From Mobula birostris (Eukaryota), in the NCBI RefSeq assembly GCF_030028105.1, contig NC_092370.1:119190221-119254220 (forward strand): 64,000 nt of DNA, given 5' to 3'. The translations under genes and the position numbers were made by a program. Under the pieces are notes generated by a model. That model saw only the letters and a program-made list of their open reading frames with translations. It had not been told where the DNA came from and made no database searches. How positions within the stretch are numbered: position 1 is the stretch's first letter; every line of letters begins with the position of its first letter. Below, piece after piece: positions 1,364 through 52,733 of the stretch.

Positions 1364-1595
1364 ACAAACAAGAGAAAATCTGCAGATGCTGGAAATCCGA
1401 GCAACACACACAAAATGCTGCAGGAACTCAGCAGGCCAGGCAGCATCTAGGAAAAGAGTACAGTCGACGTTTCCAATGCTGGCCTAAAACATCAACTGTT
1501 TATTCATTTCCATAGAAGCTACCTGACTTCCTGAGTTCTTACAGCACTTTGCATGTTTCTCTGGGTTTCCGGCATCTGCAGAACCTCTTGTGTTT
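1364..1595. mobile_element. Fold-back short element derived from the Penelope-like terminus
   Basis: Left arm ACAAGAGAAAATCTGCAGATGCTGGAAAT...CAGTCGACGTTTC resembles 44628-44737; right arm ...CATCTGCAGAACCTCTTGTGTTT is an imperfect reverse complement. Confidence 0.8.
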
Positions 1596-1994
1596 ATATT
1601 TTCCAGTTACAGTGACTCAGTTTTAGTGAGTCACAACAGTATAATGAAGTTGCCCCCAACAGAGTAAGAGTTGCACATCCCAACTAGCAGAACTTCTTTG
1701 AATGGTCAATACTGGTGCCTGTTGTGGAGGAAGCCCCAGAGACTTCATGTAAGGACATTGAAGTAGGAGCCTACTTGCCTCTGGAGCTTGCTCCGCCTTT
1801 CAGTGTGATCAATGCTAACATGATTGTTGGATTCACCCACACTCCCCCATTCAATCCCCAGGAGTCAAAGTCTATCAGAGCCTTGGATACATTCAGTGGC
1901 TCGGCATTCTCAGATCTTAGGCTACAGCATCCAAAACTTTGCAACACTTCAGAGAAAACGTCTTCATCTGAGGAGAACCTTCACCCTATGAGCG

Positions 1995-2157
1995 ACACAG
2001 AAAGAACTGGAGGAGCTCAGCAGATCAGGCAGCGTCTCAGGAGGGAAATAGATAATCATTGTATTGGGTCCAGAAGAAGGGTCTTGGCCCAAAACATCAA
2101 CTGCCCATTTTCTTCTGTATTTGTTGTCTGACCTGCTACAATTCTCCATGACTTTGT
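1995..2157. mobile_element. Degenerate Penelope-derived fold-back element with decayed hammerhead core
   Basis: GGAGGAGCTCAGCAGATCAGGCAGC, then GTCCAGAAGAAGGGTCTTGGCCCAAAACATCAACTG, then CTGACCTGCTACAATTCTCC. Confidence 0.65.
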
Positions 2158-2424
2158 CATTGCCCCCTAATTCTAGGCTCCTGCCTGTCAGAGGAAACAT
2201 CTTCACCATATCTTCTCTGTCAAGCTCTATCAGAACTGTTAATATTTCAGTGGCTTGTCTTTCATCTGGTGGACATTCGGACACTGTCCATTCAAGACCA
2301 TAAGAGCATAAGACATAGGAGTAGAATTAGGCCATCCAGCCCATCGAGTCTGCTCTGCCATTCGATCATAGCTGATCCTTTCTTTCCCCTCCTCAATCCC
2401 AGTTCCCAGCCTTCTTTGATGCCA

Positions 2425-2806
2425 TGCCATTCTAAAGGGGGAGGGTGAGCAGCCAGTTGTCTTGGCACATGTTGGTACCAATGACATAGAAAGGACAAAG
2501 GAGGAGGTCCTGAAGAGAGATTTCCAGGAGTTAGGAAGGAAGCTGAGAAGCAGGACCTCCAGGGTAGTAATCTCAGGATTGCTACCTGTGCCACGTGCTA
2601 GCGAGGGCAAGAATAGTCGGATCAGGCAGATGAATGCGTGGCTGAGAGACTGGTGCAGGGGGCAGGGCTTCAGATTCTTGGATAATTGGGATCTCTTCTG
2701 GGGGAAGTATGACCTGTTCAAAAAGGACAGGTTACACCTGAACCCGAAGGGGACCAACATCCTGGCGGGAAGGTTTAATAGAGCTGTTAGAGAGGGTTTA
2801 AACTAA
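2425..2806 (+). pseudogene. CR1 ORF1 C-terminal SGNH/GDSL esterase fragment
   Basis: AHVGTNDI (block III GxND) and DRLHLN (block V DxxH) motifs. Confidence 0.9.
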
Positions 2807-2874: not shown

Positions 2875-5765
2875 GTGAGCAGTAAAGATGTCAGGAAAGT
2901 CAGGCAGGTGATGGGGCAAATTTGTAGCCATTGGGATGAGTTGCAGTGCAATAAAGTTGCAGTGAAATCAAAGCGAAAAGTATCAAATACTGGTCTTAAG
3001 GTGTTGTACTTAAATGCACGCAGCATAAGGAATAAGGTGGATGATCTTGTCGTACAGCTACAGATTGGCAGATATGATATTGTGGCCGTCACTGAGACCT
3101 GGCTAAAGGATGCATGTCTCTGGGAGCTGAATGTCCAAGGATACACGGTGTATCGGAAGGATGGGAAGTTAGGCAGAGGGGGAGGCGTGGCTTTATTGGT
3201 AAGAAATGATATTAAATCATTAGAAAGAGGTGATATAGGGTCGAAAGATGCAGAATCTTTATGGGTTGAGCTAAGGAATAGCAGGGGTAAAAGGACCGTG
3301 ATGGCAGTTATTTATAGGCCTCCAAACAGCTGCAGGGCTGTGGACTACAAATTACAACTGGAAATAGAAAAGGCTTGTCAGAAGGGCAGTGTTATGATAA
3401 TTGTGGGGGATTTTAACATGCGAGTGGATTGGGAAAATCAGGTCGGCACTGGATCTCAAGAGACAGAATTTGTAGAATGTCTGCAAGATGGCTTTTTAGA
3501 ACAGCTTGTTGTTGAGCCCACTAGGGGATCGGCTGTACTGGATTGGGTATTGTGTAATGAACCGGACGCGATTAGAGAGATTGAGGTGAAGGAACCCTTA
3601 GGAGGCAGTGATCATAACATGATCGAGTTCACTGTGAAATTTGAAAAAGAGAAGCCGAAATCTGATGTGTCGGTATTTCAGTGGAGTAAGGGAAATTACA
3701 GTGGCATGAGAGAGGAACTGGCCAAAGTTGACTGGAAAGAGACACTGGCAGGAAAGACAGTAGAGCAGCAGTGGCTGGAGTTTATGTGAGAAATGAGGAA
3801 GGTGCAAGACAGGTATATTCCAAAAAAGAAGAAATTTTCGAGTGGAAAAAGGATGCAACCGTGGTTGACAAGAGAAGTCAAAGCCAAAGTTAAAGCGAAG
3901 GAGAGGGCATACAAGGAGGCAAAAATTAGTGGGAAGACAGAGGATTGGGAAGTTTTTAAAACCTTACAAAAGGAAACCAAGAAGGTCATTAAGAGGGAAA
4001 AGATTAACTATGAAAGGAAGCTAGCAAATAATATCAAAGAGGATACTAAAAGCTTTTTCAAGTATATAAAGAGTAAAAGACAGGTGAGAGTAGATATAGG
4101 ACCGATAGAAAATGATGCTGGAGAAATTGTAATGGGAGATGAGGAGATGGCAGAGGGACCGAACAAGTATTTTGCATCAGTCTTCACTGAAGAAGACATC
4201 AGCAATATACCGGACACTCAAGGGTGGCAGGGAAAAGAAGTGTGCACAGTCACAATTACAACAGAGAAAGTACTCAGGAAGCTGAATAGGCTAAAGGTAA
4301 ATAAATCTCCTGGACCAGATGGAATGCACCCTCGTGTTCTGAAGGAAGTAGCTGTGGAGATTGCGGAGGCATTAGCGATGATCTTTCAAAAGTCGATAGA
4401 TTCTGGCATGGTTCCGGAGGACTGGAAGATTGCAAATGTCACTCCGCTACTTAAGAAAGGAGCAAGGAAGCAAAAAGGAAATTATAGACCTGTTAGCTTG
4501 ACATCGGTGGTTGGGAAGTTGTTGGAGTCGATTGTCAAGGATGAGGTTACAGAGTACCTGGAGGCATATGACAAGACAGGCAGAACTCAGCATGGATTCC
4601 TTAAAGGAAAATGCTGCCTGACAAACCTAATACAATTTTTTGAGGAAATTACCAGTAGGCTAGACAAGGGAGATGCAGTAGATGTTGTATATTTGGATTT
4701 TCAGAACGCCTTTGACAAGGTGCCACACATGAGGCTACTTAACAAGATAAGAGCCCATGGAATTATGGGAAAGTTACATACGTGGATAGAGCGTTGGCTG
4801 ATTGTCAGGAAACAGAGAGTGGGAATAAAGGGATCCTATTCTGGTTGGCTGCTAGTTACCAGTGGTGTTCCACAGGGATCAGTGTTGGGACCGCTTCTTT
4901 TTACATTGTACATCAACGATTTGGATTATGGAATAGATGGCTTTGTGGTTAAGTTTGCTGACGATACGAAGATAGGTGGAGGGGCCGGTAGTGCTGAGGA
5001 AATGGAGAGTCTGCAGAGAGACTTGGATAGATTGGAAGAATGGGCAGAGAAGTGGCAAATGAAGTACAATGTTGGAAAGTGTATGGTTATGCACTTTGGC
5101 AGAAAAAATAAACGGGCAGACTATTATTTAAATGGGGAAAGAATTCAAAGTTCTGAGATGCAACGGGACTTGGGAGTCCTCGTACAGGATACCCTTAAAG
5201 TTAACCTCCAGGTTGAGTCGGTAGTGAAGAAGGCGAATGCAATGTTGGCATTCATTTCTAGAGGAATAGAGTATAGGAGCAGGGATGTGATGTTGAGGCT
5301 CCATAAGGCGCTGGTGAGACCTCACTTGCAGTACTGTGGGCAGTTTTGGTCTCCTTATTTAAGAAAGGATGTGCTGACGTAAGAGAGTACAGAGAACATT
5401 CACTAGAATGATTCCGAGAATGAGAGGGTTAACATATGAGGAACATTTGTCCGCTCTTGGACTGTATTCCTTGGAGTTTAGAAGAATGAGGTGAGACCTC
5501 ATAGAAACATTTCGAATGTTAAAAGGCATGGACAGAGTGGATGTGGCAAAGTTGTTTCCCATGATGGGGGAGTGTAGTACGAGAGGGCATGATTAAGGAT
5601 TGAAGAGCGCCCATTCAGAACAGAAATGCGAAGAAATTTTTTTAGTCAGAGGGTGGTGAATCTATGGAATTTGTTGCCACGGGCAGCAGTGAAGGCCAAA
5701 CCATTGGGTGTATTTAAGGCAGAGATTGATAGGTATCTGATTAGCCAGGGCATCAAAGGTTATGG
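2875..5765 (+). pseudogene. CR1 ORF2 (APE endonuclease + reverse transcriptase) with premature stops
   Basis: YLNARS, VTETW, GDFN, GSDH endonuclease motifs; [32 protein letters not shown] motifs; in-frame stops at 3787 and 5380. Confidence 0.95.
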
Positions 5766-5881
5766 TGAGAAGGTGGGGGAGTGGGACTAAATGGGAGAAT
5801 GGATCAGCTCATGATAAAATGGTGGAGCAGACTCGATGGGCCGAATGGCCGACTTCTGCTCCTTTGTCTTATGGTCTTATG

Positions 5882-6748
5882 TCCAATTACGAACCTATCA
5901 ATCTCTGCCTTAAATACACTCAATGACCTGACCCCCACTGTTGCATGTGGCAACAAATTCCACAAATTCACCACCCCTTGAGTAAAGAAATTTCTCCACA
6001 TCTCTGATTTGAAAGGGCGCCCTTCTATCCTGAGGCTGTGCCCTCTTGTCCTAGACTCTCCCACCATGGAAAACATACTTTCCACATCTACTCTGTCTAG
6101 GCCTTTCAACATTCGAAAGGTTTCAATGAGATCCTCCCTCATCCTTCTGAATTCCAACAAGTACAGACTCAGAGCTATCAAACGTTCCTCGTATGATAAC
6201 CCTTTCATTCCTGGAATCATCCTTGTGAATCTCCCCTGGACCCTCTCCAATGCCAGCACATCTTTTCTAAGATGAGGGGCCCAAAACTGTTCACAATACT
6301 CAAGGTTCACAATACTGTTCACCAGTGCCTTATAAAGCCTCAGCATCACATCCTTTCTCTTGTATTCTAGACCTCTTGAAATGAATGCTAACATGGCATT
6401 TGCCTTCCTCACTACCGACTCAGCCTGCAAGTTAACCTTCAGGGTGTTCTGCACAAGAACTCCCAAGTCCCTCTGCATCTCAGATTCCTGTGTTTTCTCC
6501 CTGTTTGGAAAATAGTCCGCACATTTATTTCTACTACCAAAGTGCATGACCATGCATTTTCCAACATTGTATTTCATTTCCACTTCCTTGCCCATTCTCC
6601 TAATCTCACTAAGTCCTTCTGCATCCTACTTGTTTCTTCAACACTACCTGTCCCTCCATCAATCTTTGTATCACCTGCAAACTTGGCAACAAAGCCATCT
6701 ATTCCATCATCTAAATCACTGATATACAGCATAAAAAGAAGCGGTCAT
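5882..6748 (-). mobile_element. CR1 LINE 3' part, host of the 2425-5881 insertion; its tail is at 2295-2424
   Basis: ORF 5804..6595 encodes the CR1 ORF2 C-terminus (KCMVMHFG, RDLGVLV, LERVQGRFTRMIPG, FFTQGVVNLWNLLP). Confidence 0.92.
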
Positions 6749-7384: not shown

Positions 7385-7494
7385 AGACCGCAGATCCTAG
7401 AAAATGGAGCAACACACAAGACACTAGAGGAACTCAGCAGTTCAGGCAGCATCTACGGAGTCAACATTTCAGGTCGAGTCCCTTCATCTGGACT
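7385..7494 (-). mobile_element. Penelope-like 3' terminal fragment with mutated hammerhead core
   Basis: GGAACTCAGCAGTTCAGGCAGCATCTA...AGTCAACATTTCAGGTCGAGTCCCTTCATCTGGACT is similar to 44690-44761. Confidence 0.7.
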
Positions 7495-9042
7495 CAAGGA
7501 CCCTTGCAGACTCGGCACCCAGAGAGGAAGGTGCTAATGAACAAAGAGACTTCAAATTCAAAGTAGCAAATGCTTAATCATTTATAATCAAAAACAGGAG
7601 GACAACAGAGCTCTCCAAAACTTCCATCTGCTCCTCAAATCCAAGGCTTTATCCAGACTTTTTGTCTCCTGTCTTCTGTAGTTTGGTGTTAATTTTTATC
7701 TGAAAATACCCCCTCTCCTCGTTCAGAGCAGCACTGGTTGATTATTTTGTGCATAATGAAGTGGTGCTGAGAATATTCTGTTAGCTCACATGACAACAAA
7801 AGAGCAAAAAAGAGATAATGTGAGATAAATTATTAGGCAAAAATTCAAAGAAAAGAAGGAGACAGTCAGCTTCCATTGCTTCAGGATATAGTCAGTAATA
7901 GCCTGGCAAAATCTCATGGAAAGGTTAAAACAATAAACCATCCATTAGATATGCTGTTTGTGAAAGATCTCTTAGCACGATTCTGTCAGAATTTCCCCAC
8001 AAATGATAAGCCGTATCCAATATGACTCCACAGCTTGGCTAGAAGCCGGGAAAACCTTGAAACTTCAGCAGGACAACATCTTTGCCACTTTGATTGGAAA
8101 TCTTGACCTTTATTCTATGCCCGGATAGAGAGAAAGAGCCTCACAGCACACGAGACAGCTCTGGCACAGTGTGTATCCTGAGGCTGCTCCGTGAGAATTG
8201 GTCCCTCTTCCAATCACGCCTGCGATCTAAGTTCCTGGGTTTTTCCCAGTTATAAGGCAGTACTGAGGAAATCAAAGGACGTGAATTTCACAAGTACCAT
8301 TCATGACCTCACAACAACTGAAAGTGCCTCACGGCCAACGACACATTTCTTTGAGCTGTTGTGTGGCAGTGATAGCAAGTGGAAAATGTGTCTGACAAAT
8401 GGTATGGAATGTTTTGACTCTGAGGCTTTCTTCCCTACACAAAACCGCTTCCTGCCTTGTCCTGCCAAGCTCTGCTCCATTTGCAGACTTATCTGCATAT
8501 CCTTCATTGTCACATCTTCCTCAGGGTTTTACAATCAAGTGTCAAACCCGCCCATCCCAGTACCACGAGAGAACTTCTTTATCCACTATTGAGGCCTTGT
8601 CCACCTTTCCTGAACCATTCTTCAACCCCTGCCGGCCAGCTGGGGAGCTATTCATCCAGTTCCCTATTCAATTGCCATCCAGGTCCTGCTACTCTAAATG
8701 AACTGCTGCTTAGCTTGCTGCTTAATGCCCCTGCACAGTACACTACCTACCTCTTACCAGCACCCACCATACCCACCTCCTACTCCATTTCTCCAGAGCG
8801 CTCCCGGCTGAGGGGAGAGCTGATGAAATTTATAGAACTACGAGAGGCATAGGTAGGGTAGACAGTCAGAATCTTTTTCCCAAGGTAGAAACGTCATGTA
8901 CTGGTGGACATGCTTTCAAGGGACAGTTTAAAGGAGACGTAACAAGTGGAGGGAGTCTGAAACTGGCTGCCGGGATGGCTGTGGAAGCAGGTAAAATAGT
9001 ACGGGAAGTGGAGGGATATTGATCATGTACAGGCACGAAATC

Positions 9043-9447
9043 TTAGAAGAATGAGGGGAGACCTCATAGAAGCATTTTGAATGTTGAAAGGCATGGACAG
9101 AGTGGATGTGGCAAAGTTGTTTCCCATGATGGGGGAGTCTAGTACAAGAGGGGATGACTTAAGGATTGAAGGACGCCCATTCAGAACAGAAATGCAAAGA
9201 AATTTTTTTAGTCAGAGGGTGGTGAATCTACGGAATTTGTTGCCACGGGCAGCAGTGGAGGCCTAGTCATTGGGTGTATTTAAGGCAGAGATTGATAGGT
9301 ATCTGAGTAGCCAGGGCATCAAAGGTTATGGTGAGAAGGTGGGGGAGTGGGACTAAATGGGAGAATGGATCAGCTCATGATAAAATGGTGGAGCAGACTC
9401 GATGGGCCGAATGGCCGACTTCTGCTCCTTTGTCTTATGGTCTTATG
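9043..9447 (+). mobile_element. Young CR1 3' fragment inside an older CR1 tail (~8790-9530)
   Basis: Nearly identical to 5478-5881, with the same CTTATGGTCTTATG end. Confidence 0.92.
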
Positions 9448-9639
9448 TAATTCAGCATTGTGTTCGGTATGGACATTGAGGGCCAAACGGCCTGTTCCTG
9501 TGCTGTACTCCTCAGCGTTGCATGTTCTATGCAGAGGTTCCGTTTATGACATTCAGGTAAATAATCCATAATTTAATTGTGGCCTACATTGCCAGAACAG
9601 GATAAAGATGGCTACGGGGTGGTAGAGAATGTTGCGAGG

Positions 9640-16700: not shown

Positions 16701-18425
16701 GCCTAGTAACACCCCTCTTTCTTGCTGCCATGTTCCTGATAGCTCGCACTCACCCAGAGGTGAACCTGACCCATTGACTCGGTGTAGTTCTATAATAAAG
16801 TCATACATGTTTGGTGTGGCGTTTTGTGGTATTTCGAGCTGGCGAGTAACCCTCGTCTGTTTCAGGCTTTTCCTCTGCTATCTCAGCCTGTCATCACCTG
16901 GGTCCTGTTCGAGGCATCCACTCCCTGATGCCAGCCAGACTGCCTCCTGCCTATCTCAGGAGGTTTCCGAGTGCGTCATTGTGCACTCTTTGTGGGTAGC
17001 TGTGGGAAAATTCTCCGCAGAGATACCAGCAGAAGTTTTCCACTGGCCTTTATCCTGCTTCTGGCAAGCAAACATGTCTCATCCTTGAAACTCCAGGCAC
17101 GTTTCCCAAGACCCCATGAAAGGCAGCCAGCTCTCACACTTCCAGACGTGCTGGTACACCAGCACCCAGTAGCAGTATTATTCTGGGATGCTTCTGACCG
17201 CAGTGGGTATGCTGAGGTCTTGAAGCAGTTTTACAACTGCTTTGGAACAAGCATGGAGAATTTTGCCACTTGTTTTTTGAATTGTAACCAATACACTGCA
17301 TACTCCCCATTAGATTTATAATTAAATCAATAGGGAGTGATAAAGCGTTAAGTTACAAAGAAAACCAAGGAGCAAAGGCCCTGCTGCTGAGTGTTGAGAG
17401 TGATAAAGCTGTTGGGCTGCCTGATAGGAGTGGGGAAGACTGGATAAGTTTCGATGTTGCTGTGACAACCGTGGAAGGGTAGCAGTGAAAGCTGAGCATT
17501 GTGTGCAACATGGTTCGGGTCCCGTTTAGGAGGCAGGCAGCAAGGTAAAGGTAATCTGAAATGCAAAGAATGTAGATGCTGGAAAATTGAAATATTAACA
17601 GAAATTGTTTCAACAGAATGACAGTGACCTTGGGCGTTATCTGTTTCTCCACTGCCCCCCCACCTCCAGAAATACTGCACAACCCAGTGAGTGTTTCCAA
17701 CATTTGTGTTTAAAACCTATTCATCTTTAAGCACACATTTACATCTATCGCCTATCCATATTTGGCCTTGAACTTAATGACTTGCTGGGCTACTTTAAGA
17801 AGGCATTTAACAATCATCTCCTTTGATGTGTCTGCAATCTTGAATCAACAGACTGGGCGAGGAGGCAGATTTCCTCGCCCTGAAAAACATTATCAAGGTT
17901 CATACAACAATGCAGTGGTTTTATGGTCACCATTACAGAGCTGAGTTGGGGTCAGGTGCTTTGTACTTTTTAAAATTTCGCAGCTGCTGTGGGGAGACTG
18001 GGACTTGTAAATCCAGAACCCTGCACCCATGGAGAAGGGAAGAGCGAGGGGGGGCGGAGTAGGTGGATTGCCAACATTCTTTATGTGTGATGGGATGCCA
18101 CATATCTAAATGGGAAATTGGGTGCCCTACACAATTACGACTTTGTAATCCTTTCACTATATAGTTTCAGTGACCCAAGCGCTTGGCCCGCACACATTTA
18201 TTCTCAGGTGGTCCCAAACTGAATGATGTTGACACACTATGTGCTTTGGAGTCCCACACAAGTAACAAGATGATAAATTGGTCATTGGCCTATTCATGTC
18301 ACATGTACAGAGGTAGAGTGAAAACTTCCTTCTGTATACCTTCCATAAAGATAATTTCATCTCATCATTTCATACATTTGTCATTTGTAGGTTTAATTCC
18401 TACTTTCCTAAGTTATTGTGTTTTA

Positions 18426-20523: not shown

Positions 20524-23500
20524 TATTTAAGTATTATCTTCTTGATTCTGGATACCGTTTTGTATTCTTCTGAGGTCCAGTATTAGCCCATCCTACTCAA
20601 CCCCTCCTTCAGGGGATCCAATCCAGTGAATCTACACAGCACTGATTCCAAGGTGCCTCCTTGTCTGCCCACACTGCTCTCAATGTGGGCCTTTACATGT
20701 TAGCAAAGCATTATTGTTGAACCTTGGACATCTGTCACAAGGTATGAGCCTTCTAATGTCTATGAATTCCACTATCTTAGATAGTATTCACACAAAGCTG
20801 GATACATACTTGAAAGAGAAAGTGATAGGCTAGTGTGGGAAGAGCTTTCTGTGGAATATGGTCTGATTAGACCGATTTGTTTCATTACTACTACACAACA
20901 GTGTGCTTGAGCAATCTTTCAGCAGCGTTTGTAAACCATCCTGTTTGTCCGTGACCTCTAGAGCTCAAGGCATGGTACTGGGCCCAGTGAGATAGCATAA
21001 TGTTTCACTAAATAAACACTGTCACTACCAGCAGTACCATATCGAATCTGTTCTTAATCGAGGATGACACTGAATGATTGGGTGCAGGTTTCTCATTTAC
21101 CCGAAGGAGCTCTTGCCCCAGGAAAAGGCTCTACTCCTTTTTCAGCCAAGCCGAATTGTTTACATCATCTAAAATATCTCAATGCAAACAAAGTAGACAT
21201 CAGTACGTTCCCATATCTGCACCACCACCAGCACTTTCAAAATGCAACTAACATTCTTGGAGCTAGTTTAGTCTGATTTTGCAATTGCAATGTCCATTGA
21301 TAAAATGAACAGACAGAGGAATCGGTAATTGGTTTATTCCTGTCACTTGTACTGAGGTACAGTAAAAAGTTCGGTTTACAAAGTTCCAACTAAATGTACT
21401 ATCAAACTACTTATAAGTCACCAAGTTGCATACATCCATACAGATTATTTCATCACATGGGTATATTAAAGTAGTAAAAGCAAGAAACAATAACAGAATG
21501 CAGAATATAGTGTTACAGAAAAGGTGCAGTGAAGGCAGATAATAACATGCAAAACTATGACAAGAGAGGCTTTAAAGTCAAGACTCAGTGGGATAGAAGC
21601 TGTTCTTGACCCTGATGATATGTGCTTTCAAGCTTTTTTATCTTCTACCCAATGGGAGGGGAAGAAGAGAGAATGGCAGTGGTGGGTGGGTCTCTGATCA
21701 TGTTGGCTGCTTTACCAAGCTGGCAAGAAAAGTATACAGAGTCCATGGAGGAGAGGACGATTTACATGACAAAGTGGGTTGCATTCATGACTCTCTGAAA
21801 GTTCTTGCAGTATTGAGCAGAACAGTCCCCACACCAAGCCGTGATGTTTTCTATGGTGCATCAGGGACATGCCAAATTTCCTTAGGTGCACCTCTTTGGC
21901 AGTAATATCTATGTGGCTGGACCAAGACAAGGTGTTGCTAATACTTGAACCTAAAGCTCTCAACCACAAACCACAAGTCACCTGCAGGAACAGCTGAGCT
22001 TTTGTAACATCTGCTTTCATTTCAGATTTCCAGCATCTGCAGAGTTTTACCTTGCCAGCCCCGTTGTAAGCTTGAGCTGTGGGAGATGCGGACAGGGTGG
22101 TGTAGATTCAGCAGCAGAAGATTTGATGAATTTGTAGGTTTTAATCATTTCTGATGCAAAATCAAACTTTTCAGCTACAAAAATTGCTAAATTTGATGAC
22201 TGTGCTAACGTTTTAGATGTGATAGGAATTCTGGGAATGAATTTTGCATGTGCAGTGAGAAGATAACAAGGTGACCTCATTAGAAGCTACAAAGGTTAGG
22301 AAGAGGAACACTGCGGACCAACTCTTGCACTACCATAGACTTCTGTTTGTTGTGCACTATTACCTTGTTTTGAAGTCTTCACTGTCTTGTACAATTTATG
22401 TATAATTTATGTTCTGTACACTACCTGTACCTAACATGCCTGCAATGCTGCTAAAAGCAAGTTATTCATTGTACCGGTACCTCATCATATTTATAGACAT
22501 ACCTATAAACTTGGCCATGGCTCTGTCTCATAAATGACCTATCTGGCCTGTATTTATTGTATAGAGCCTTAAGTCAAACTCCTCTGTGAATCTGCACTGA
22601 TAATATAAGAGCTCTAGTCTAATATAATCTTCTTCTTCGGCTGTCCATCAATTTTTAAGTTAATTGAGGCCTGGGCAAGGTTGTATGGAAGACCGGCAGT
22701 TGCCCATGCTGCAAATCTCCCCTCTCCATGCCACCGATGTTGTCCAGGGGAAGGGCACTAGGACCCATACAGTTTGGCACCGGTGTCATCGCAGAGCAAT
22801 GTGTGGTTAAATGCCTTGCTCAAGGACACAACACGCTGCACCACTCTAATATAATAAGCAATAAGCAGCAATTGAAAGCACAAGGAAATCTTTTCTACGG
22901 GGAGAACACTTCCTGGCGAACACTCAATATTGGTGAGCTCCAATAAGTCAACATGGTGGCAAATCAACATTGCACAGTGATTGGCATCAGAATATCGCGG
23001 CTGTGAGCCTGATTCCATTCGGGAGATTGAGAGAATCTTCCCATTGAAGGACCAGGGGTTGCAGATTCAAAATGGGGGTAAAACCTCCACAGGCCAGAAG
23101 GTATTGTGACCTGGAACTCGCTAGCAGCGAGTGGATTGAAGCAGAACCATCAGGGCTTTCAGGGGTAGTGTGGGAACGTCGCCTGCAGAGAAACAAGGGA
23201 AGAATTGAGAAAGTGCATTTTGTTGACATGAGTTCGATGGGAAGAATGATCTCAACGTCCAACGTAAATTTTATTATCGATGTATATACGTGTCACCATC
23301 TACAACCCTAAGATACACTTCGTGCGGGCATACTCAGCAAATCTATACAATAGTAACTAGAACAGGATCAATGAAAGATCAACCAGAGTGCAGATCACAA
23401 CAAGCTGTGCAAATGTAAATATAAATAAATAGCAATAAATAGCGAGAACATGAGATAACAAGGTAAAGAGCCCTTAAAGTGAGTAAATTGGCTGTGGGAC

Positions 23501-24812: not shown

Positions 24813-26221
24813 CATTTGCACTTTCGAAGAAGCAACTGCAAACATAGACACAAGTATACAGTATTTATAAAACCATATTCCAAGTATTTTGTAAGGAGCA
24901 AAATTCCAGTGTTTAAGTTTTCCCCTCCTCACAGGTGATACTTTGCCAGACAGTTGTGATTTTCCTAATGCTGACATTACAGTTGTCCAGACGGATCAGT
25001 TTCTCTCATTCTGGGACTTGGCCCAGAGATGTTTCCTGGTCCAGAGACATCCTTTGTATCACCCATAGACTTCAAGATTGGGGTGTATGTGCTGATGACT
25101 GCTGGGAACTGATTCCTTGTTAGAGTGAGCTGGAGGATCAGAAGACATTTCTGATTCCCCAGAGGGAGTCAACAAGACCACCAGATAGCTCAGTCCGAAT
25201 GGCAAGGACCATCCTGCGAAGACAGCGTTCTGCGCTACTACTGAGTGATTGTGAGTTGCCTCCTATGCAGTGTAAGTGGGAGGTGTTTGGTTCAAGGACC
25301 TGCAGTGAACCAGGCTTCTCCTTAACTGTTCTCTGCAATCCAAGATCTCTGAGGAACATAGAAACATAACAAAACCAGAGCTGGATTAAGTGCAAGTTTG
25401 CAGTGCAAATGGACACTGTGGTATTTATCTCAATACCTGCTCTTTCTTTCCCAGATGCCCTTTGTGTCCAGTAGTCGGTGCATCTCCTCTTTAAGAATTT
25501 CCTCCAACTTGATCTCGACAGATCTATGGGTTCACCACTTTCTGGGTTGAAGAGCTTTCTCCTCATTCTTTTAAATGTCTTAGCCTGACACAATCATGCT
25601 AGACCCACCCAGTCGGATTAAAATACCCTGCCTATACCCAGGTTGTTGAGTTTTGTCAGTACTTTGTACATTTCACTGAGATAATTGAAACTCTAGTAAA
25701 TGAAAGCAAAGTCAACTCAGCCACTGCTCATACAAATGTTCCCCAAAATGCCCCCCCACTACTACCACCCACCAATCCAGCAATCAGTCTGCTGTAACTT
25801 GATTGACAGGTATCTCCCTTCTTAGGGAAGGCCACCAGATATGGTTTCATTTACACAGGACTCAACAACTCTTGCAAGAAAGGCCAACATACCATTTATC
25901 TTCCCAACAGCCTGTTCACCTGTTTATTCTCAGTTAGCGACTGGTGAATAAGGCCACCCAGATTAGTGCCCACAATGAACTTACTAAATCACCTTGAAGC
26001 CTCTTTGCATCCTCCTCTCAACTTACAGCCCTATCCAGTTCTGTGTTGCTGGGTAAATTAGGAGCAAGGCATTCAGTTCTCTCATCCAAATCATTGATAT
26101 AGACCGTGAGTAGCTGGGTCCCAAGCACTGACCTGTTCAGTAGCCCTCTACTTACAGCCTGCGACCCCATTTACTCATAGTCTCAGCCAATTTTTCATCC
26201 ATGTTCATGTATTACTTCCAG

Positions 26222-26940: not shown

Positions 26941-26949
26941 ATTACTTCT

Positions 26950-28152: not shown

Positions 28153-29074
28153 AGTAATATTCGGAAAACCATGAGGCACACTGCTTCCCTGTTCATACAA
28201 GAATACTTTAATCCTATCTGAAACGTTGATTTGAAAACACAAAATTAGAAGGAAGTGAAGACAATATAATAGCCTTCAGACACAGCACAACCTCACTTTC
28301 CATGTAACAGCATTAAATGGCCTTTACGATGTAGTCAGTGTGGTTGCAAAAACCCACCACAGGATCAGGAAATTGCTGTGGTGCCTTTGTTAAATGCAAG
28401 GATTTTTTTGTGGCATGTTACTGCATTAAATATACACTCTTTCAAGTTTGTTTTAAAGGTTCAGCATGTTGAGAACTACATCCAGCAGGTCTTGTGATTT
28501 AGTCTTCTCCGTGTTGACCTTGATGCCTGGAGTGTGCAGAGATGCTGCAAAAGGTCCTTGGCTTATCCACGCCAAATCAGTTTCTAAAGGTGGTGTGAAA
28601 GACCGGGACACACAAACACTTTTGCCTGAAACACAGTCATGTTTTTCAATCTGATGAACAGAGGGCAAGGATAAAGAGAGTGTCGGTGAGAGATAGTCAT
28701 CCACAGGCTAACCAGGCACAGGTTCCTTCTGATAACAAGGAAAGCCAATACTCCTTCAGTTGAGCAGCTTCCAACAGCAGCACCCTACCAGGTGAAGGAG
28801 AATCTCTCGGTGATGTCTTGATATCAGCTCTGGTATTCTCTCAGTGCTGTTCTGATAATGGGCCCAGTTCTCCCATGGTGAAGTCTTGGAAGAATTCTGT
28901 AAGAAAATAACTGAATTAGATGTGTTGGTAACAGTGCAGGGGAACCACCCTGGCAGATGTTCTACATTACATCACACCGATCATCCAGATTATCCGATCA
29001 TTACCATCTGTTTCTATTACTTGATGAATGTCAGATGGAGAGCTGCCTTCATTTGTTCCATCACCCACTGAAGT

Positions 29075-29528
29075 GGTGTGTCCCACATATGTTCCACTAC
29101 ATATTGGTATAGTGTATCTCATTTTTGTCCCACTACGGTGGGTTTGTTAAACGTGCTCCATCACATGCTGAGGTAATGTGTCCCACATATATTGCATTAC
29201 ATGCTAAGAGTGTATCCCACATAAGTTCCATCATACCTTAGGCCATGTGTCCCACATAAGTTCCATCATACCCTAGGGCATGTGTCCCACATATGTTCCA
29301 TCAGTTGGTGGAGTACTGCATCCCACAAGTATTCCATCAGATGGTGGGGTAGCATGTCCCACACGTGTTCTATGAAATTGAGGGTGTATGTCCCACACAT
29401 GTTCCATCATACACTGGGCTAGTGTGTCCTACACATGTTCCATCACACACACCAGGGAAGTGTGTCCCACACGTGTTCCATCACACATGCCAGGGAAGTT
29501 TGTTCCACACATGTTCTATCACACACTA
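29075..29528. repeat. Degenerate ~33-35 bp minisatellite, ~13 copies
   Basis: Recurring core GTGTCCCACA(C/T)ATGTTCCATCA. Confidence 0.85.
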
Positions 29529-29532
29529 TGGC

Positions 29533-31050
29533 AGCCTTTCTCAACCTTCTTGCCCTGGAGGAATCCTTGAAATAATTTTCACGTCTCAGGGAACCCCTGC
29601 ATAAAAATTATTATGTCTGCAGGTCATGGTACGCTAGAATGATCAGTAAGTTGTAGATATAATAATCCAAAAATAATTGCCTCTGCTATTTTGAATAGAG
29701 AATGAAATTTTAGCTTACCTTTCTTGAAATTAATCTCTTTCTTTCCCTTTCATAAATTGAAAAAAATTTATAAGGCAAACATATAAATGTCTCAATTCTG
29801 GGTCAAACTTGAGATAAGTAAGCATGGATTTCACCTTCAACTGAAATTAGACGATTTCTATCCTTGCTCTTGAAGCTTGTTAAACAAGAAAAAGCTTGCT
29901 CACACATGTAAGAAGTTGAAAACTGTAGCAAAATGTTCATTGCTTTTCTGTGAATGGCAGGATACTGTTCTTTTGCAGAATCCAGAACTTGTCCAGGGGC
30001 AGTTTAGTAAATCTCGTCTTGAGTGCATGATCAGAGTGCAGTTCACAAAGTTCTTCCTCTTCTCTCAAAGTCAAGTGATCAGGCTGAGTGGAAGATACAG
30101 AGAAAGGGTCCCTCACCCAGCCATACACGTGTTGAAAGGGAGGAAAAATACTATTCAACTTTGTTCTACAGTTCTTCCAGGTGGCTTTCAATAAGACTCG
30201 AGACTTCCTTATATCCTTCTTCACTCTCAAGCCCAGGCAGCAGTGGAAACATTTCAGGATTTCCTCTTGCAACATGATTTTTCCAAAGATTCTGTTTCTT
30301 TTTCAATTCAAGAATCATGTCACTTGAAGTCAAAATGTTTTCCCTAGGGCCTTGTAGAGACTTGTTTAACTGGTTCATATGATGAAACATGTCTGTTAAA
30401 TAGACTAGTTTCTTCAGCCATTCTTCATCTTCAAAGCACTCAGCAAAATTTGGTCTACAATTTTCCTGAAATTACTCCTTCAATTCACCTGTCAGCTCAA
30501 AGACCTTGTTGAGAACTCTTCCTCGCTAAGCCAACAGATTTCCGTATGTAGCAGGAGATATGTGTGCTCTTTGTTTAGGTTTTCACACAGTTTTATAAAC
30601 ATTCTCTTGTGAACTGGTCTTAAAGCTACTAAATAATTTGCTTCCTGAGTCCTTTTACTGACTGAGACTTTATTTTCAAAAGCTTTAATCTGCTTGTTTT
30701 GAGATTCCAATAGTCATATAAAATAATCAGCACTTTTATGTTTCATATAGCTGTCATTTATAGTTAAGTATCTTTTCAATTTTGCCTGAGTCGTTGCTAC
30801 ACTTGTACGTTGTTTGCCACAGTCTAGGCACAATGGAATAGGACAACTTGGATCTCCAGTCCATGTAAAACCTATTGATAAGTAGCTTTCATTGTAAGGA
30901 CGGACTTGTTTTGTGTCTGTTGGACTAGTGCAGTGAAATAACTCAGAAGATTGTAATTCTTCACCACTAACGTTATCAGAGTTGTCCATAGGCACACAAC
31001 CCCTTAAATTTGTAAATTTGGAAGAGACTTACTGAAATGAACTTGTGTGA
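29533..31050 (-). mobile_element. Decayed hAT Charlie/Buster transposon (ZBED5/FAM200-like transposase fragments)
   Basis: BED-finger remnant RPYNESYLSIGFTWTGDPSCPIPLCLDC..KLKRYL; LLLHTEICWLS; NQLNKSLQG; terminal CAGCCTTTCTCAACC at 29533. Confidence 0.88.
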
Positions 31051-44235: not shown

Positions 44236-44724
44236 CACTCATTGTGATCTCTTTCTGAAGGGATTGAGGAGGGTAGGGAATAAAGGATGATAGTGTGGAG
44301 AGATGCTCTGGGTTAGAAGAAAGGTAAAGTAGCCATAATATTTTATCAGCAGATAATGGAGAATAGAATGACTGCTGCTTTGCTTTAGAGTGGAAGTGAC
44401 TGTAGTCAAAGTAAAGATACGACAAGCAACTTATCAGTGTGTTCAGATGTTTGCCTTGCATCTCCAACAACTTGGGTTCAATCCTGATCCTTGGAGATTT
44501 CTGTGTGGAGCTTGCATATTCTCTCTGTAACCACCTGGGTTTCTTCTGGATCCTCCAGTTTCCTGCCACATCCCTAAGAAGTGCACGTCTATAGATTTTA
44601 TGGGAATGTGGGGAGAATAAAATATCAAACAAACAGGAATTCTGCAGATGCTGGAAATTCAAGCAACACACATCAAAGTTGCTGGTGAACGCAGCAGGCC
44701 AGGCAGCATCTCTAGGAAGAGGTG

Positions 44725-44762
44725 CAGTCGACGTTTCAGGCCGAGACCCTTCGTCAGGACTA
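44725..44762 (-). ncRNA. Minimal type I hammerhead ribozyme with intact core
   Basis: Minus strand UAGUC-CUGACGA-AGG(GUCUCGG)CCU-GAAAC-GUC^GACUG: helix I UAGUC/GACUG, helix II AGG/CCU, palindromic ACGU as helix III, GUC triplet. Confidence 0.85.
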
Positions 44763-45057
44763 ACTGAAGGAAGAGTGAGTAAGGGATTTGAAAGTTGGAG
44801 GGGGAGGGGGAGATCCAAAATGATAGGAGAAGACAGGAGGGGGAGGGATAGAGCCAAGAGCTGGACAGGTGATAGGCAAAAGGGGATACGATAGGATCAT
44901 GGGACAGGAGGTCCGGGAAGAAAGACAAGGCGGGGGGGGGGACCCAGAGGATGGGCAAGAGGTATATTCGGAGGGACAGAGGGAGAAAAAGGAGAGTGAG
45001 AGAAAGAATGTGTGCATAAAAATAAGTAACAGATGGGGTAGGAGGAGGAGGTGGGGC

Positions 45058-45831
45058 CTAGCAGAAGTTAGAGAAGTCGATGTTCATGCCATCAGGTTGG
45101 AGGCTACCCAGACGGAATATAAGGTGTTGTTCCTCCAACCTGAGTGTGGCTTCATCTTTACAGTAGAGGAGGCCGTGGATAGACATGTCAGAATGGGAAT
45201 GGGATGTGGAATTAAAATGTGTGGCCACTGGGAGATCCTGCTTTCTCTGGCGGACAGAGTGTAGATGTTCAGCAAAGCCGTCTCCCAGTCTGCGTCGGGT
45301 CTCGCCAATATATAAAAGGCCACACCGGGAGCACCAGACGCAGTATATCACCCCAGTCGACTCACAGATGAAGTGTTGCCTCACCTGGAAGGACTGTTTG
45401 GGGCCCTGAATGGTGGTAAGGGAGGAAGTGTAAGGGCATGTGTAGCACTTGTTCCGCTTACACGGATAAGTGCCAGGAGGGTGATCAGTGGGGAGGGATG
45501 GGGGGGACGAATGGACAAGGGAGTTGTGTAGGGAGCGATCCCTGCGGAATGCAGAGAGAGGGGGGGAGGGAAAGATGTGCTTAGTGGTGGGATCCCGTTG
45601 GAGGTGGCGGAAGTTACAGAGAATAGTATGTTGGACCCGGAGGCTGGTGGGGTGGTAGGTGAGGACCAGGGGAACCCTATTCCTAGTGGGGTGGCGGGAG
45701 GATGGAGTGAGAGCAGATGTACGTGAAATGGGGGAGATGCGTTTAAGAGCAGAGTTGATAGTGGAGGAAGGGAAGCCCCTTTCTTTAAAAAAGGAAGACA
45801 TCTCCCTCGTCCTAGAATGAAAAGCCTCATC
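45058..45831 (-). pseudogene. Penelope-like ORF C-terminus: end of RT thumb, Cys-rich linker, GIY-YIG endonuclease (open frame)
   Basis: FFKERGFP, LVLTYHP, CKRNKCYTC linker, VIYCVWCSRCGLLYIGETRRRL..FAEH, VATHFN, EQHLIFRLGSLQPDGMN. Confidence 0.93.
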
Positions 45832-46343
45832 CTGAACATCTACGCTCTGTCCGCCAGAGAAAGCAGGATCTCCCAGTGGCCACACATTTTAATTCCACAT
45901 CCCATTCCCATTCTGACATGTCTATCCATGGCCTCCTTTACTGTAAAGATGAAGCCACACTCAGGTTGGAGGAACAACACCTTATATTCCGTCTGGGTAG
46001 CCTCCAACCTGATGGCATGAACATCAACTTCTCTAACTTCCGCTAGGCTCCACCTCCCCCTCCTACCCCATCTGTTACTTATTTTTATGCACACATTCTT
46101 TCTCTCACTCTCCTTTTTCTCCCTCTGTCCCTCTGAATATACCTCTTGCCCATCCTCTGGGTTCCCCCCCCCCCGCCTTGTCTTTCTTCCCGGACCTCCT
46201 GTCCCATGATCCTCTCGTATCCCCTTTTGCCAATCACCTGTCCAGCTCTTGGCTCTATCCCTCCCCCTCCTGTCTTCTCCTATCATTTTGGATCTCCCCC
46301 TCCCCCTCCAACTTTCAAATCCCTTACTCACTCTTCCTTCAGT

Positions 46344-46381
46344 TAGTCCTGACGAAGGGTCTCGGCCTGAAACGTTGACTG
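46344..46381 (+). ncRNA. Minimal type I hammerhead ribozyme with GUU triplet
   Basis: TAGTC-CTGACGA-AGGGTCTCGGCCT-GAAAC-GTT^GACTG. Confidence 0.8.
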
Positions 46382-47884
46382 CACCTCTTCCTAGAGATGC
46401 TGCTTGGCCTGCTGCGTTCACCAGAATAAAATATCAGACCAGTTTCTGATGGTTGGTGAAAACTGGCTGGGCTGAAGGGTTTGTTTCTGTGCTGTAGGAC
46501 TCTGTGAGTTTATGAATTTGTCTGCCTACATAGCCCCAGCCAAAGGATCATGTCATCTCAAACCTCTCAGGAGTTTTGTAAGAACACTTATTTATCTGAT
46601 GCAGTTCCTGGTGTAACACAGGCAAGCCAGCAACTAGTCTCAAGTGCATTGTGAAAGACTTTCCAGACTTATAGGATACATTGACTCAATGGGTAACAAA
46701 TAATGAAAGCTTGTTAGTTCAAGTATCATTCCAGAAATCTACCTAGGCTACCACATGCCGTACCAGTAACTGTGGAGTGTTAATCTGTTGGGAAAATATT
46801 AAACTAGACCCCATCTACAAGATCCACCCAGCCTTCTACAACAGCTTCCAAAAGACAGTAGGCACAGGGAACATCATTCCTTGCATCCCTCCTGGTCACT
46901 CCTCACCATGAACTGAAAATGGATCTGCAATGAATACTAGTTCTAGATCTGGAGAATCCCTCAGTGAGAGGTACAGGAACCTGAAGGCCTGTACTTAGTG
47001 ATTTGGAAATGGCCTTTTCCATTCTGCCATCAGATTTCTGAACAGCTCAAGAACCTATGAATGCTACATTGTTATTCCTTTTATTAGGACTTTATTTTTT
47101 GTAATTTATAGTATTTTTATGTATTTACATTGCATTTCACACCATATACAGTGAGTGAGTGGTGATAAATCTGATTCTGATTCAACACTGGGCTAATGAA
47201 GATGGCTCACCACTTCCTTCTCCAGTTGGTGGTGAGACAATATCCTAAATAAGCAAAAAGAACAGCTACTTTGTAGGAATTTGAAGAGTGAAGGAATTCT
47301 CCAAGTAATATTTATCCACAAGCAACATCACTAAAAGCAGGCAATTATCTGTCCATTATCTCACAATTGTCTGTGGACTTCAGCTGTGCGCAAATGGACT
47401 ACAAATACAAGCCTCTCCCTTGAACTAATGTCAACCATAAACAGCTGTGTCTGAAAATGAGTGTACATTAGTGGTGAGCTATGAGATTTCCTCATGCAAG
47501 TGTAATATTTGAATTGACACAAAAGGTCTATTTTGTGTATATTTCCCACCAGCCATAGCAACATCACTTCTAGGCTGCTGACTTAGAATGACATATATTC
47601 TCTCCTCACCATCAAAATATCTAACTTAATCAGCATTCCCACCAGTTTTAAGACAAAATGATGGGTAATGGGTGACTTCACTATTACCACAGTCAATGTG
47701 CAGTTCATCTGTTTGGGTTTTCCGACATGGGCCAAAGTCAAAGTCAAGTTTGTTGTCCTGTGCATAAGTACATATACACACAAGTGCAATGAAGAACTTA
47801 CTTGCAAAAGACATCATAACACCATGGACAAAGTAACCTACTATGCTCTATGACACCTCCACTCAGCCACTCTTCCATTGATTT

Positions 47885-48298: not shown

Positions 48299-48299
48299 C

Positions 48300-50823
48300 T
48301 AGCAAGCATTATTTTTATGATTGGTATTAACTTACAGTCATAGACTACAAGATAGTTGTGATGAGAGAGAGAACAAAATGATGCTATTTTGGCTAAGATT
48401 GTTTTGGGAGCCACATCCTTTCCATTAATAAACCATTTGAAATCGAACATTAGCAGACACAAATGTAGACCTAACTAACGAAACGAATTGTAAATGTAAA
48501 TAATACGACTGCACTTAATTTTTATTAGCCTGCTTCCAGCAATAAAACTCAGACAATGGACACAGTTAGCCTCTAATTTTTATTGAAGTGATCACATTTA
48601 CAATAATAGAATAGTCAGATTATGAATGAATCACAATGTTATGACACAATATTTCATAATGCATTTTTGCTTACTTGTTGAGGTGCATCGAAGAGTGTCA
48701 CTCATTTTTCACTTGCTGCTTCCAGACACCTGATATCTCTTGGCTTTAACCAGTCTGTCAACATCAGGGACCAGTTTCTGGGCAGTTGTGAGTTTCATAA
48801 TGTCATTTAGATGTCCATGTGTCAGCTGCGAGCGCAGTTTGGATTTGTTAATGTTCATTATAGAGAACGCTTGCTCACAGAGATATGTTGTCCCGAACAT
48901 GCAAAGGATCTTTGAGGCAAAGTCTGTCATCTTGGGGTACATCGGTCCCAGGTATTTATAGAATGAGTCCAGACCCACAGTCTCAAATTTATATTTCAAA
49001 GCCGAGTTACACTGAATTTCAATTAGTTCCATTTGGAGTTCCTCCGGCACATCTGATGCTGCGTTGACGGCAAACGGCGAGCAAAATAGTGAGAATTCCT
49101 TCTCGAGCTGAGTGAAGACTTGAAAACAATTCTGAGACTCACTTTTCAGCCGTGATATTTTGTCCTTGTACCTGTCCATGTTGTCATTACTCCCACGAGC
49201 GACACGCACAGACTGCAAAGAGGGGAAATGAGCTGGGTTTCTCCAGGATAGTTGCATCTCCCACAGGTCTAATTTAATTTGAAAGGCACGATTGACGTCG
49301 TAGTATTCCATAACAAGTTTGTTGCGGCCTTGCACGTTAACATTAAGCACATTTAAGTGCTCTGTTATATCCACCAAAAATGCACTGGCTTCCCTCTCTT
49401 GTTCATGAATAGTCCAATTTCCGCACGTAATTGAAAAAAACGTTTGAGCACAACCCCTCTGCTCAACCAGCGGACTTCAGTGTGGTAGGGTAGGCCGTGT
49501 CCAATATTACTTTCGGACAAAAGGGTGTCAAATTGCTGATGGTTGAGTCCCTTGGCTCCAATAAAATTAACCGTTTTGATTACTACATCCATGACATTGT
49601 CCATTTTCAGGCTACTGCTATATAACGTCTCTTGGTGTATAATGCAATGAAAATTCCAGAGTTCCTGCTCTGGATTCCCTGTCTGAACTTTCTCACTGAG
49701 TTTCACAACAACACCTGCATTTTCCCCGACCATGGACGGTGCGCTATCTGTTGCCACGCTGACAGCGTGACTCCAGTCAACCCCCAGTCTGTCCAAGGCC
49801 TCGATGAGGCTGGAGAAAATGTCGTTCGCCGTGGTGGTGTTTGTCATGGGCACCATCTCCGCAAACTCCTCGGTGACGGTCAAAGATGCATCAACGCCAT
49901 GAATAAATATTCCCAAATGAGCTACATCAGTCACGTCGGTGCTCTCACCAATTGCAATAGAGAAGGCAATAAATGACTTTTCCTTGTCTTTTAGTTGACT
50001 GTTCAAATCTCCTGCAAGATCCCCGATTCTCTCTGCCACAGTATTTCTTGACAAGCTGATATTACCAAAAGCCTGTCTCTTCTCTGGGCACACCAGCTCA
50101 GCTGCCATCAGCATGTATGCTTTGATGAATTCCCCCTCTGAGTATGGCTTCGACGCAGCAGCTATTTTGTTGGCAATAATATAGCTGGCCTTGACAGCTC
50201 CATCATGAGTCTCTCAACGTTTGGTGAACACTGATTGCTGTTTTTTCAGAGCTGCTTCAAGCTCGTTTACCTTTTGCGTTCTGAGTCGTCCTGCATACTT
50301 GTCATATTTTTCTCTGTGTGACATCTTGTAGTGTTGTTTGATATTGTACTCTTTTGCCACAGCCACATGTTGCGAGCATATCAGACACACAGGTTTGCCG
50401 TTGACCTCACAGAAGAAAAAGCGATCTTTCCAATTATCATTGAATATCCGACCTTTGATGTCAACTTTTCTATTCGTGGAAAGCATTTTGAACCACAGCA
50501 GCAAACAGTCTCAATCTTGCTACAGGTGTTACTTACCTGAGTACTCTGTGTGTTTATATGTGTCTGATGACATAAGTGGGGCCCTAGTGGTCTTCAGTGC
50601 AGGGTGGTAGATGCTTATGCACAGCGGGTGGTTAACTGCACCCTATTGTTTTCTAATTGCACACAACAAGCTGCCGGCACAGCAGGCAGCACAGACAGCG
50701 GTGGGAGAGAGAGTGGCTGCCTTACAGATACAGAATAAATGGTTGTGAATATGGTTTTTCTCCCCCAAATCATCCCGCAGGCTGGATTGGACCCCTTCGC
50801 AGGCCGGTAGTTTGACACCACTG
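48300..50823 (-). mobile_element. SPIN/GTF2IRD2-like hAT (Charlie/Buster) transposon with a nearly full transposase pseudogene (50504-48709)
   Basis: BED finger (W..RFFF...KPVCLIC...KEYNIKQHY), SLSRNTVAERI, GESTD, ATDSAPSM, HCIIHQE, VRWLSRG, MFGTTYLCEQAFS, KSKLRSQLT; 5' TIR CAGTGGTGTCAAAC at 50823; other TIR not found. Confidence 0.93.
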
Positions 50824-51174
50824 GCTTAGATGGATCTTTGACCAATAAAGATGAACTCTTGCTGTCCCAATCTATGTCATTGTGGCCCCTTATTTTAATT
50901 GTCTACCTGCAGTACACATTCTCTGTAGCTGCTACTCTACAGTATATTCTGCAATCCGACTTTCTCAATGCATGGAATAATCTTTCTCATGGCAGGAAAA
51001 ACAAAACCTTGGTGTAGTACAGTATCTCAGGACAGGTGACAGTACAGAACTGACACTCTAAGGACAGGACCACTGAGAGAGCAGACTTCCCCCAAGCATT
51101 GCCACAGGAGGGTCAGTATTTGCATTGAGATTTTGAACACCAACACCAACAGAGAGCAATGTGTTCCTTTAAAA

Positions 51175-51925
51175 CAAACTCCCTGAAAGTGGCTGCACAA
51201 GTTGACAGGGTGATAGAGAAGGCCTGTGGTATGCTTGCCTGTATTAGTCGGGACACTGAGTTCAATAGTCGGAAAGTTGCATGCAGCTTTGTAAAACTCT
51301 AGTCACATCTAGAGCATTGCATTTCATTATAGGATGGATGTGGAGGTTTTGGAGACAGTGCAGAAGAGTGTTACCGGGCTGTTGCTTAGAGTAGAAGGCC
51401 AGTACTATAAGGAGAGGTTGGACAAATTAGTGTTGTTTTCATGCAGCATCAAAGGCTGAGTGGGTATCTGATCAAGGTTTATGAGATTATGAGGGGCATA
51501 GATGGAGTAGAGAGCTGGTATCTTTTATCCAGTGCCAAGATGTCTTATACTAAAGGGCATGCATTTAAGTGAAGAGGAGGTTAAATTCAAAGGAAATGTG
51601 TAGGGCAATTTGGTTTCTCACACAGAGTGATGGGGGACGTGAAATGAACTGCCTGGGGTATTGCTAGAGGCAAATATGATAGCAATATACACAAAATGCT
51701 GGAGAAACTCAGCAGGTCAGGCAGCATCGAAGGAAAAGAGTACAGTCAACGTTTTGGGCTGAGACCCTTTTCTCTTGTTTGCAAATATGATAGTGCTGTT
51801 TAAGAGGTTCATAGAGAAGCATGGGATGAAGGGATTTGGATGTTGTGGAGGCCAATGGATTATTTTAGTTAATTCGGTATAACGTATGGTGCCCGTTCCT
51901 CTGCTGCACTGTTCTATGCTCTATG
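51175..51925 (+). mobile_element. Decayed CR1 3' fragment
   Basis: Colinear with 41320-42020; ends GTTCTATGCTCTATG. Confidence 0.85.
51683..51780. mobile_element. 98-bp Penelope-terminus insertion with inverted structure and 13-bp TSD
   Basis: GCAAATATGATAG at 51670-51682 and 51781-51793; insert is the terminus fragment plus the inverted end TTCTCTTGTTT. Confidence 0.85.
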
Positions 51926-52733
51926 TTGAGTACATGTGCACATTTGGCTTTTGAACAGGAACTGCAGAGCGGTTCTGTATCCTGGAGTCTGCGGAAACAG
52001 ATGACTGCTCAGTCAGAAAAGAGGAGTTGATGAAACTAGGCAAGGCACTAGTCAGATAGAGGAGTGTAAAGAACCTGCCGAACTGTGTTTCAGTACAGCT
52101 CCAACATTTAGTCAGCAAATAGCAATTGTTGTCTTCACGGCAATTAACTCAAAATAAAGGATCATGGCAGTAGAGCACGCACTATCGGCTTCTCCTAAAG
52201 GACTCTTACAAGTACTTAATCAAATTGTTCACTCAGTCTGTGCCAGTGCACTGTTACGCATGCTCTAGTGATGGCTCAGCGTCACCGTGACAACACTAGA
52301 GGTGGGGAACACCATTAAAAAAAAGATAATACAATTAAAAAAAAACTCAGATGCCAGAAATCTGAAATAAAAACTGAAAATCCTTAAAAAAAATCTCAGC
52401 AGGTCAACAACATCTATAGAGAGACAAATAGTCAGTGTTTCAGTTCTGTAAACAGGTGGAGTAACAGGTCAAAGGCACAGAATGTTGCCTCTTCTTCTCT
52501 CTCTGTAGACACTTCCTGACCTGATGAGTTTTTCCAAATGTTGCTGTTTTCTGCTTAGGATAAAATGTCAGCATTTGAGAAGCCCAGCTAAAGACAGAGC
52601 ATAATGTGAGACAATTAGCCTGCCGACAGGACAAAGTTTCCTACACTGGCTCTAGTCTTTGTTTAAATGGTATGCTCCCAAATTCTGATCATACACTTGT
52701 GCAATGCAAAGGCTATTTCAATTAGATTATTGG

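Follow-up and report, generated by a model that had tools for sequence, protein, structure and literature searches.

Dispersed across a 64,000-nucleotide stretch of the Mobula birostris genome (NCBI RefSeq assembly GCF_030028105.1, contig NC_092370.1, positions 119,190,221 to 119,254,220; this whole stretch is hereafter the window) are short fold-back elements built from the terminus of a Penelope-like element (PLE), a retrotransposon whose end carries a predicted hammerhead ribozyme. The locus raises the question of whether such stubs spread as a family in their own right or are made anew wherever the PLE inserts. A preliminary description of the window had offered both, namely that PLE integration routinely gives tiny inverted products, or that the PLE enzyme amplifies in trans a hairpin RNA that is non-autonomous and has its ends set by the ribozyme, and had put forward the latter as a little-described class of parasite. 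We conclude that the fold-backs very probably represent an endonuclease-bearing (EN+) PLE in its shortest inverted insertions, each likely arising independently where it stands and not by copying from another. They are assigned to the PLE because their terminus is shared with long copies encoding reverse transcriptase (RT) and a GIY-YIG domain and because their lengths form a continuum with those copies; an independent origin is indicated since nearly all junctions between arms differ and the haplotypes of the parent element are represented among the fold-backs.

The parent element is present in the window as a young insertion flanked by a clean 14-bp duplication (44614-44627 / 46423-46436). 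Positions in the terminus are given as q = window position − 44627, where q1 is the outer end and the sense strand of the element runs from high q to low q. Its features are as follows:

44628-46422: inverted insertion of the parent PLE, young and 1.8 kb long, with a tail-bearing arm from 44628 to about 45820 and a tail-less inverted arm reaching 46422
45058-45818, minus strand: 3' part of the PLE open reading frame (ORF), GIY-YIG region (Pfam GIY-YIG, E 0.061)
44726-44761 (q99-134), minus strand: minimal hammerhead motif (strict descriptor and sequence pattern)
46345-46380, plus strand: second hammerhead motif, in the inverted arm, with triplet GUU (strict descriptor)

A longer copy elsewhere (L299:2741-4432, L-numbers being labels of individual genome stretches) holds a 563-aa frame collinear with the terminus, in which RVT_1 (E 6e-6 at 78-215) and GIY-YIG (E 0.0032 at 466-539) are matched, both below the Pfam curated cut-offs. 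The motif at 44726-44761 consists of a 4-bp stem I, CUGACGA, stem II and GAAA-CG-UC with loop 3 absent, and its predicted cut lies between 44730 and 44729 (q103|q102). Motifs of this type have been described for PLEs (PMC4209133). Within the window, the two arms of 44628-46422 were the only matches to the strict descriptor. Folding of the hammerhead region as a monomer was uninformative (z -0.03), and no relevant family was matched in Rfam.

A terminus profile built from genome copies was used to search the window and a random set sampled at even spacing from large contigs, 109 stretches of 10 kb each (1.09 Mb in total, in a genome of 4.0 Gb). The random set gave 258 matches (reversed control, 0), which merged into 220 elements including 33 short fold-backs of 124-259 bp; extrapolated genome-wide, this amounts to ~0.8 million elements and ~120,000 short fold-backs. 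Exact matches to a 35-mer of the young tail number 23,427 in the genome, and from the first 100 places listed for it we assembled a young set of 90 copies, omitting 4 places inside a neighbour's stretch and the last 6 of the 100.

Young tail-bearing copies hold an inverted segment in 57 of 90 cases, formed by 5' truncation and an adjacent inverted copy. The inverted insertions run from 77 to 2,940 bp in length, crowding below 270 bp with no gap that would isolate a short class. Of the 90 copies, 39 are fold-backs of short length, and another 14 are short and single-armed. In 38 of the 39 fold-backs, which were selected for a tail on the first arm, the ~30-45-nt tail is absent from the second (it ends at q25 or beyond). 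Target-site duplications scoring >=10 flank 63 of the 90 copies and 37 of the 39 short fold-backs (null 1/90); they are 10-19 bp long, with a mode of 14. By eye, the catalytic core is missing from both arms in 10 of 39. This continuum, the duplications and the variety of junctions support the suggestion that PLE integration routinely gives tiny inverted products.

Shared junctions and shared diagnostic mutations across loci had been proposed as the mark of a propagating family, and neither was found to prevail. Among the 39 young short fold-backs there are 34 different junctions, none occurring more than twice, and all 33 short fold-backs of the random set have distinct junctions. Extra bases are present at 21 of the 39 young junctions, and 16 of the other 18 show 1-6 nt of microhomology. 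The 30 best whole-length matches to one young fold-back had its general shape in common and different junctions, except for 8; these 8 also share 380 bp of flank and were therefore duplicated together with their surroundings. The mix of haplotypes in short fold-backs is like that of the other copies in the young set (chi-square p 0.54). All-against-all extension of old copies was too noisy for dating ends. Eight near-identically flanked copies of one fold-back (L173-L178, L182 and L183), seven of them on contig C17, represent a multi-copy larger duplication. Two long inversions at different target sites (L283, L287) have a nearly identical junction (reference 518 to 543), and one insertion (L003:1069-1636) carries five short head-to-tail stutters between its arms (27-47 bp, q139-185), suggesting repeated template jumps; a stutter in L252 resembles it.

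The inner ends of arms gather at one position of the terminus. In the young set, q131-137 holds 31 of them, compared with 37 across 62 flanking bases (p 7.5e-14), and the commonest end position of genome copies is q134, the first base of hammerhead stem I (window 44761). The older random set has 14 of 66 inner ends in this first-base region (p 0.0009, or p 0.047 when only the downstream side serves as reference). The predicted cut site at q101-103, in contrast, accounts for only 2 of 129 young inner ends, approximately the flanking rate, and 1 of 66 in the random set; these counts from the two sets do not support ribozyme cleavage as the source of the junctions, nor the proposal that the ribozyme defines the ends. 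In searches of the openly available literature, we found no report of PLE ends at the hammerhead first base or of MITE-sized PLE fold-backs (MITE, miniature inverted-repeat transposable element).

As to what stops the copies at q134, we lean slightly towards the template RNA's 5' end; a block to RT by a protein or by structure is a rather doubtful alternative. Genome-wide, 1,601 copies exit the template with C or T directly after q134, and 222 do so after q139; the C:T ratios are 802:799 and 93:129, respectively (odds ratio 1.39, p 0.026). The position also fits an initiator-like YYANWYY, and it fits the AG of a pyrimidine-tract acceptor. In Drosophila virilis, an intron reaches as far as the 5' end of helix I (PMC4209133), and upstream of that intron lies the start (PMC2377424). 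Genomic copies of spliced RNA were sought and not found: with the one join tried, ORF end to hammerhead, the genome yielded 12 matches, of which none looked by eye like a clean splice, and no such join was found among 108 ORF ends examined. Three joints, each in a single contig, connect 44761 to 45062, 45083 and 45122 in runs guessed to be RNA, with undetermined letters between; an intron across the pyrimidine-rich stretch might look like this, and the joints carry too little weight to be used.

A mechanism can be proposed in which the enzyme would make a staggered cut of ~14 bp in the target, and complementary DNA (cDNA) would be primed from both target ends at two internal start sites on the RNA, one giving an arm with the tail and the other an arm lacking it. 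Both cDNAs would end early, often at the hammerhead first base, likely the RNA 5' end, and their 3' ends would be joined head to head through end-joining. The ribozyme would be a passenger, copied through uncut, with its stems and palindromes supplying microhomology. We infer the staggered cut, the two-end priming, the early stop and the end-joining alike. More tentatively, an RNA starting exactly at the hammerhead first base may be copied twice, once at each cut strand and each time from a different template, with the resulting run-off cDNAs joined head to head. The arms of 55 inverted copies disagree at family-diagnostic sites in 4/43, 8/38 and 7/39 pairs (9-21%), and three further sites offered few arm pairs. 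This discordance exceeds what later mutation would be expected to produce in copies ~95-97% identical, and it fits two templates drawn from a time-limited pool.

Several observations weigh against these conclusions. All 90 young copies lie on a single contig, within its first 10 Mb, and no copy with both pseudo-long terminal repeats (pseudo-LTRs) was recovered, the longest ending at ~2.3 kb, inside the ORF. The cap-like signal after q134 is weak and is not taken as proof of an RNA start. Arm agreement at the three diagnostic sites is above chance (p 0.0017, 0.0047 and 0.0003), and a single template would yield matching arms. Five junctions each occur twice among the 39 young fold-backs; L281 and L286 share a junction with a 6-nt insert, which reads as a second within-element jump; and the commonest junction, q134->q118, has 114 exact genome matches (18 of the first 100 rows in one listing). 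As a side observation, a jump from q134 to ~q69 is seen at three unrelated loci (L281, L286 and L117:7150-7160), with a second jump following in two.

The geometry of the arms might instead come from one cDNA that self-primes by folding back, or that switches strand at palindromes or stems of the hammerhead region, which would give both arms a single template. Recurrent junctions at a 6-bp palindrome and inside stem II, the microhomology at insert-free junctions and the predominant concordance of arms are all in keeping with this idea, and self-priming has been proposed for inverted pseudo-LTRs with palindromic junctions (PMC3846280). We nevertheless consider it improbable, as it sits poorly with the extra bases at over half of the young junctions, with loop asymmetry in either direction, with second arms that are often longer than the first and can carry sequence absent from it, and with the discordance at diagnostic sites. 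It concerns geometry only and would leave the independent origin of the fold-backs unaffected.

Still less probable, in our estimate, is a non-autonomous hairpin RNA family, or a small subfamily such as the copies sharing q134->q118, amplified in trans by the PLE enzyme. Its support lies in the 114 exact copies of that junction, in the repeated junctions of the young set and in 103 palindromic matches with the junction inside stem II, which have many spellings, certain of them recurrent; non-autonomous PLE derivatives are also on record, namely MRC1 (PMC8557442) and retrozymes (bioRxiv 10.64898/2026.07.22.740005). However, the q134->q118 junction starts at the hot-spot end, sits at an imperfect microhomology of 4 of 5 and is carried by three parent haplotypes (45/38/16 and 1 other, first 100 rows, by eye), while parent copies split 44:35 at one of these haplotype sites. 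Because of the microhomology and the three haplotypes, repeated formation appears to explain these copies better than descent from one master. Moreover, the nearest neighbours of a fold-back have other junctions, inner ends avoid the cut site, and the outer ends are the parent element's own two 3' termini adjoining the duplication, which would be unexpected on the 5' side of a copied hairpin. The proposal of a hairpin RNA amplified in trans thus conflicts with nearly all-different junctions, with fold-backs spread across the parent's haplotypes and with the nature of the outer ends, and a new parasite class is not supported when a known kind of element explains the fold-backs. That they are ordinary DNA-transposon MITEs, as a size of 120-270 bp and inverted ends might suggest, has a practically negligible probability and is refuted, in agreement with the preliminary description, by long, variable duplications (10-19 bp), asymmetric ends, the lack of a fixed internal structure, a sequence that is the terminus of an RT/GIY-YIG element and the continuum with that retroelement.

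In the window itself, the genome-copy profile matched all eight places at which the same terminus had been named:

1364-1595: fold-back stub, arms 1364-1474 and inverted 1481-1595, both with tail (profile matches)
1991-2157: decayed fold-back stub, both arms without tail (profile; duplication searched for, none found)
7385-7498, minus strand: single-arm stub from tail to hammerhead 5' edge (no second arm or duplication found)
17560-17710: very decayed probable fold-back (one arm scored, E 0.007)
21983-22047, plus strand: decayed single arm with tail (profile E 5e-4)
26219-26939: fold-back stub, tail arm ending at the hammerhead 5' edge (26913) and a short inverted tail-less arm
26297-26858: non-coding insert of 562 bp, unrelated and nested in the preceding stub, bounded by perfect 12-bp terminal inverted repeats and flanked by an 8-bp duplication
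51683-51780: tail-less arm (51683-51770) with an 11-12-nt inverted tail stub (profile and sequence)
52348-52577: decayed fold-back, both arms extending into the tail (profile; no clear duplication)

The description of most copies as two-armed holds for five of the eight and weakly for one, the remaining two being single arms; inversion junctions do lie at or near the hammerhead in several, and they differ from copy to copy. No short window copy matched the strict minimal-hammerhead descriptor. Clean duplications flank 26219-26939 (9 bp, 26210-26218 / 26940-26948) and 51683-51780 (13 bp, 51670-51682 / 51781-51793), and five copies had no detected duplication. The former is long because of the 562-bp insert nested within it, which we take to be hAT-like. 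In 1364-1595, the first arm ends inside the hammerhead, 6 extra bases separate the arms and the catalytic CUGANGA box is missing from both; the hairpin is strongly folded (z = -11.8, with 0/200 shuffles folding equally well), its duplication is marginal (score 7; null 95th percentile 6.5, 99th 9.0) and its best other genome match is 84% across 193/232 bases. Its arms are 94-96% and 79-83% identical, respectively, to the nearest relatives compared, and either gene conversion or the later arrival of one copy inside an older one may account for this difference in apparent age. Visual inspection and a 46-nt repeat show the second arm of 17560-17710. The window further contains a perfect 48-bp tandem array of ~22 units (1-1068), a degenerate array of 35-38-bp units (29035-29533), a large inverted structure of another repeat family with arms ~80% complementary (4889-6746), and a segment (5478-5882) that recurs at 9043-9448 with 94-97% identity.

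By-products of PLE integration can thus yield MITE-like hairpins in very large numbers, which removes the case for a new parasite class, and repeat annotators should classify fold-back stubs under the parent PLE. The origin of the inverted copies and tails of PLEs has been described as unresolved (PMC8557442); the stubs offer products formed in vivo that can be counted, and they single out an exact position, the hammerhead first base and not the cut site. If an RNA starting at that base is indeed copied twice as suggested above, ~100,000 naturally formed products would show in vivo where the RNA has its 5' end, that the stagger is 14 bp and where the two start sites lie.

MITEs of DNA transposons are small, have inverted ends and reach high copy number. 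The stubs share all three properties, but they differ in having no fixed short duplication or uniform length, asymmetric ends and a retroelement origin. Like retrozymes, they are non-coding and have a type I hammerhead and kinship with PLE pseudo-LTRs (bioRxiv 10.64898/2026.07.22.740005; PMC7229834); non-LTR retrozymes, however, consist of tandem units that run head to tail, each containing a complete ribozyme (bioRxiv 10.64898/2026.07.22.740005), whereas the stubs are head to head, have no set length and in many cases are missing the core. The minimal hammerheads of metazoan PLE pseudo-LTRs mostly occur in dispersed, truncated PLE pieces (Cervera and De la Pena 2014, PMC4209133), and opposite-strand pairs 100-700 bp apart are mentioned there; the motif predicted here resembles them in lacking loop 3, in its palindromic positions 15.2-16.2 and in its 4-5-bp stem I. 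Compared with the D. virilis intron ending at helix I, a pyrimidine tract and AG are present here, and the single pattern tried found no spliced copies. The Poseidon PLE of Anolis (PAc) cuts and extends both target strands in vitro (Frangieh et al. 2024, PMC11167929), where two RT start sites bound the tail and hammerhead cleavage is unnecessary (PMC11167929). Two start sites defining the tail, two-strand extension and independence from cleavage would be shared with our element, and the parts of the PAc account examined describe no fold-back products or preferred 5' end (PMC11167929). Closest are insertions of EN+ PLEs, in which an inverted 5'-truncated copy accompanies a one-sided tail of 30-40 bp (Craig et al. 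2021, PMC8557442; Arkhipova et al. 2013, PMC3846280), an arrangement also described in PMC8969392. The copies in Mobula agree with these in their head-to-head arms, one shorter by the tail, their target duplication, heavy 5' truncation and a parent with RT as well as a C-terminal GIY-YIG. They differ in that products here go down to 77-270 bp and number ~120,000 by extrapolation, the duplications are longer, with a mode of 14 bp where the Adineta examples have 8-10 bp, and inner ends concentrate at one position. The inverted 5'-truncated copy, the one-sided tail and the opposite-strand hammerheads are thus already published PLE features, to which the clustering of inner ends at the hammerhead first base makes a modest addition.

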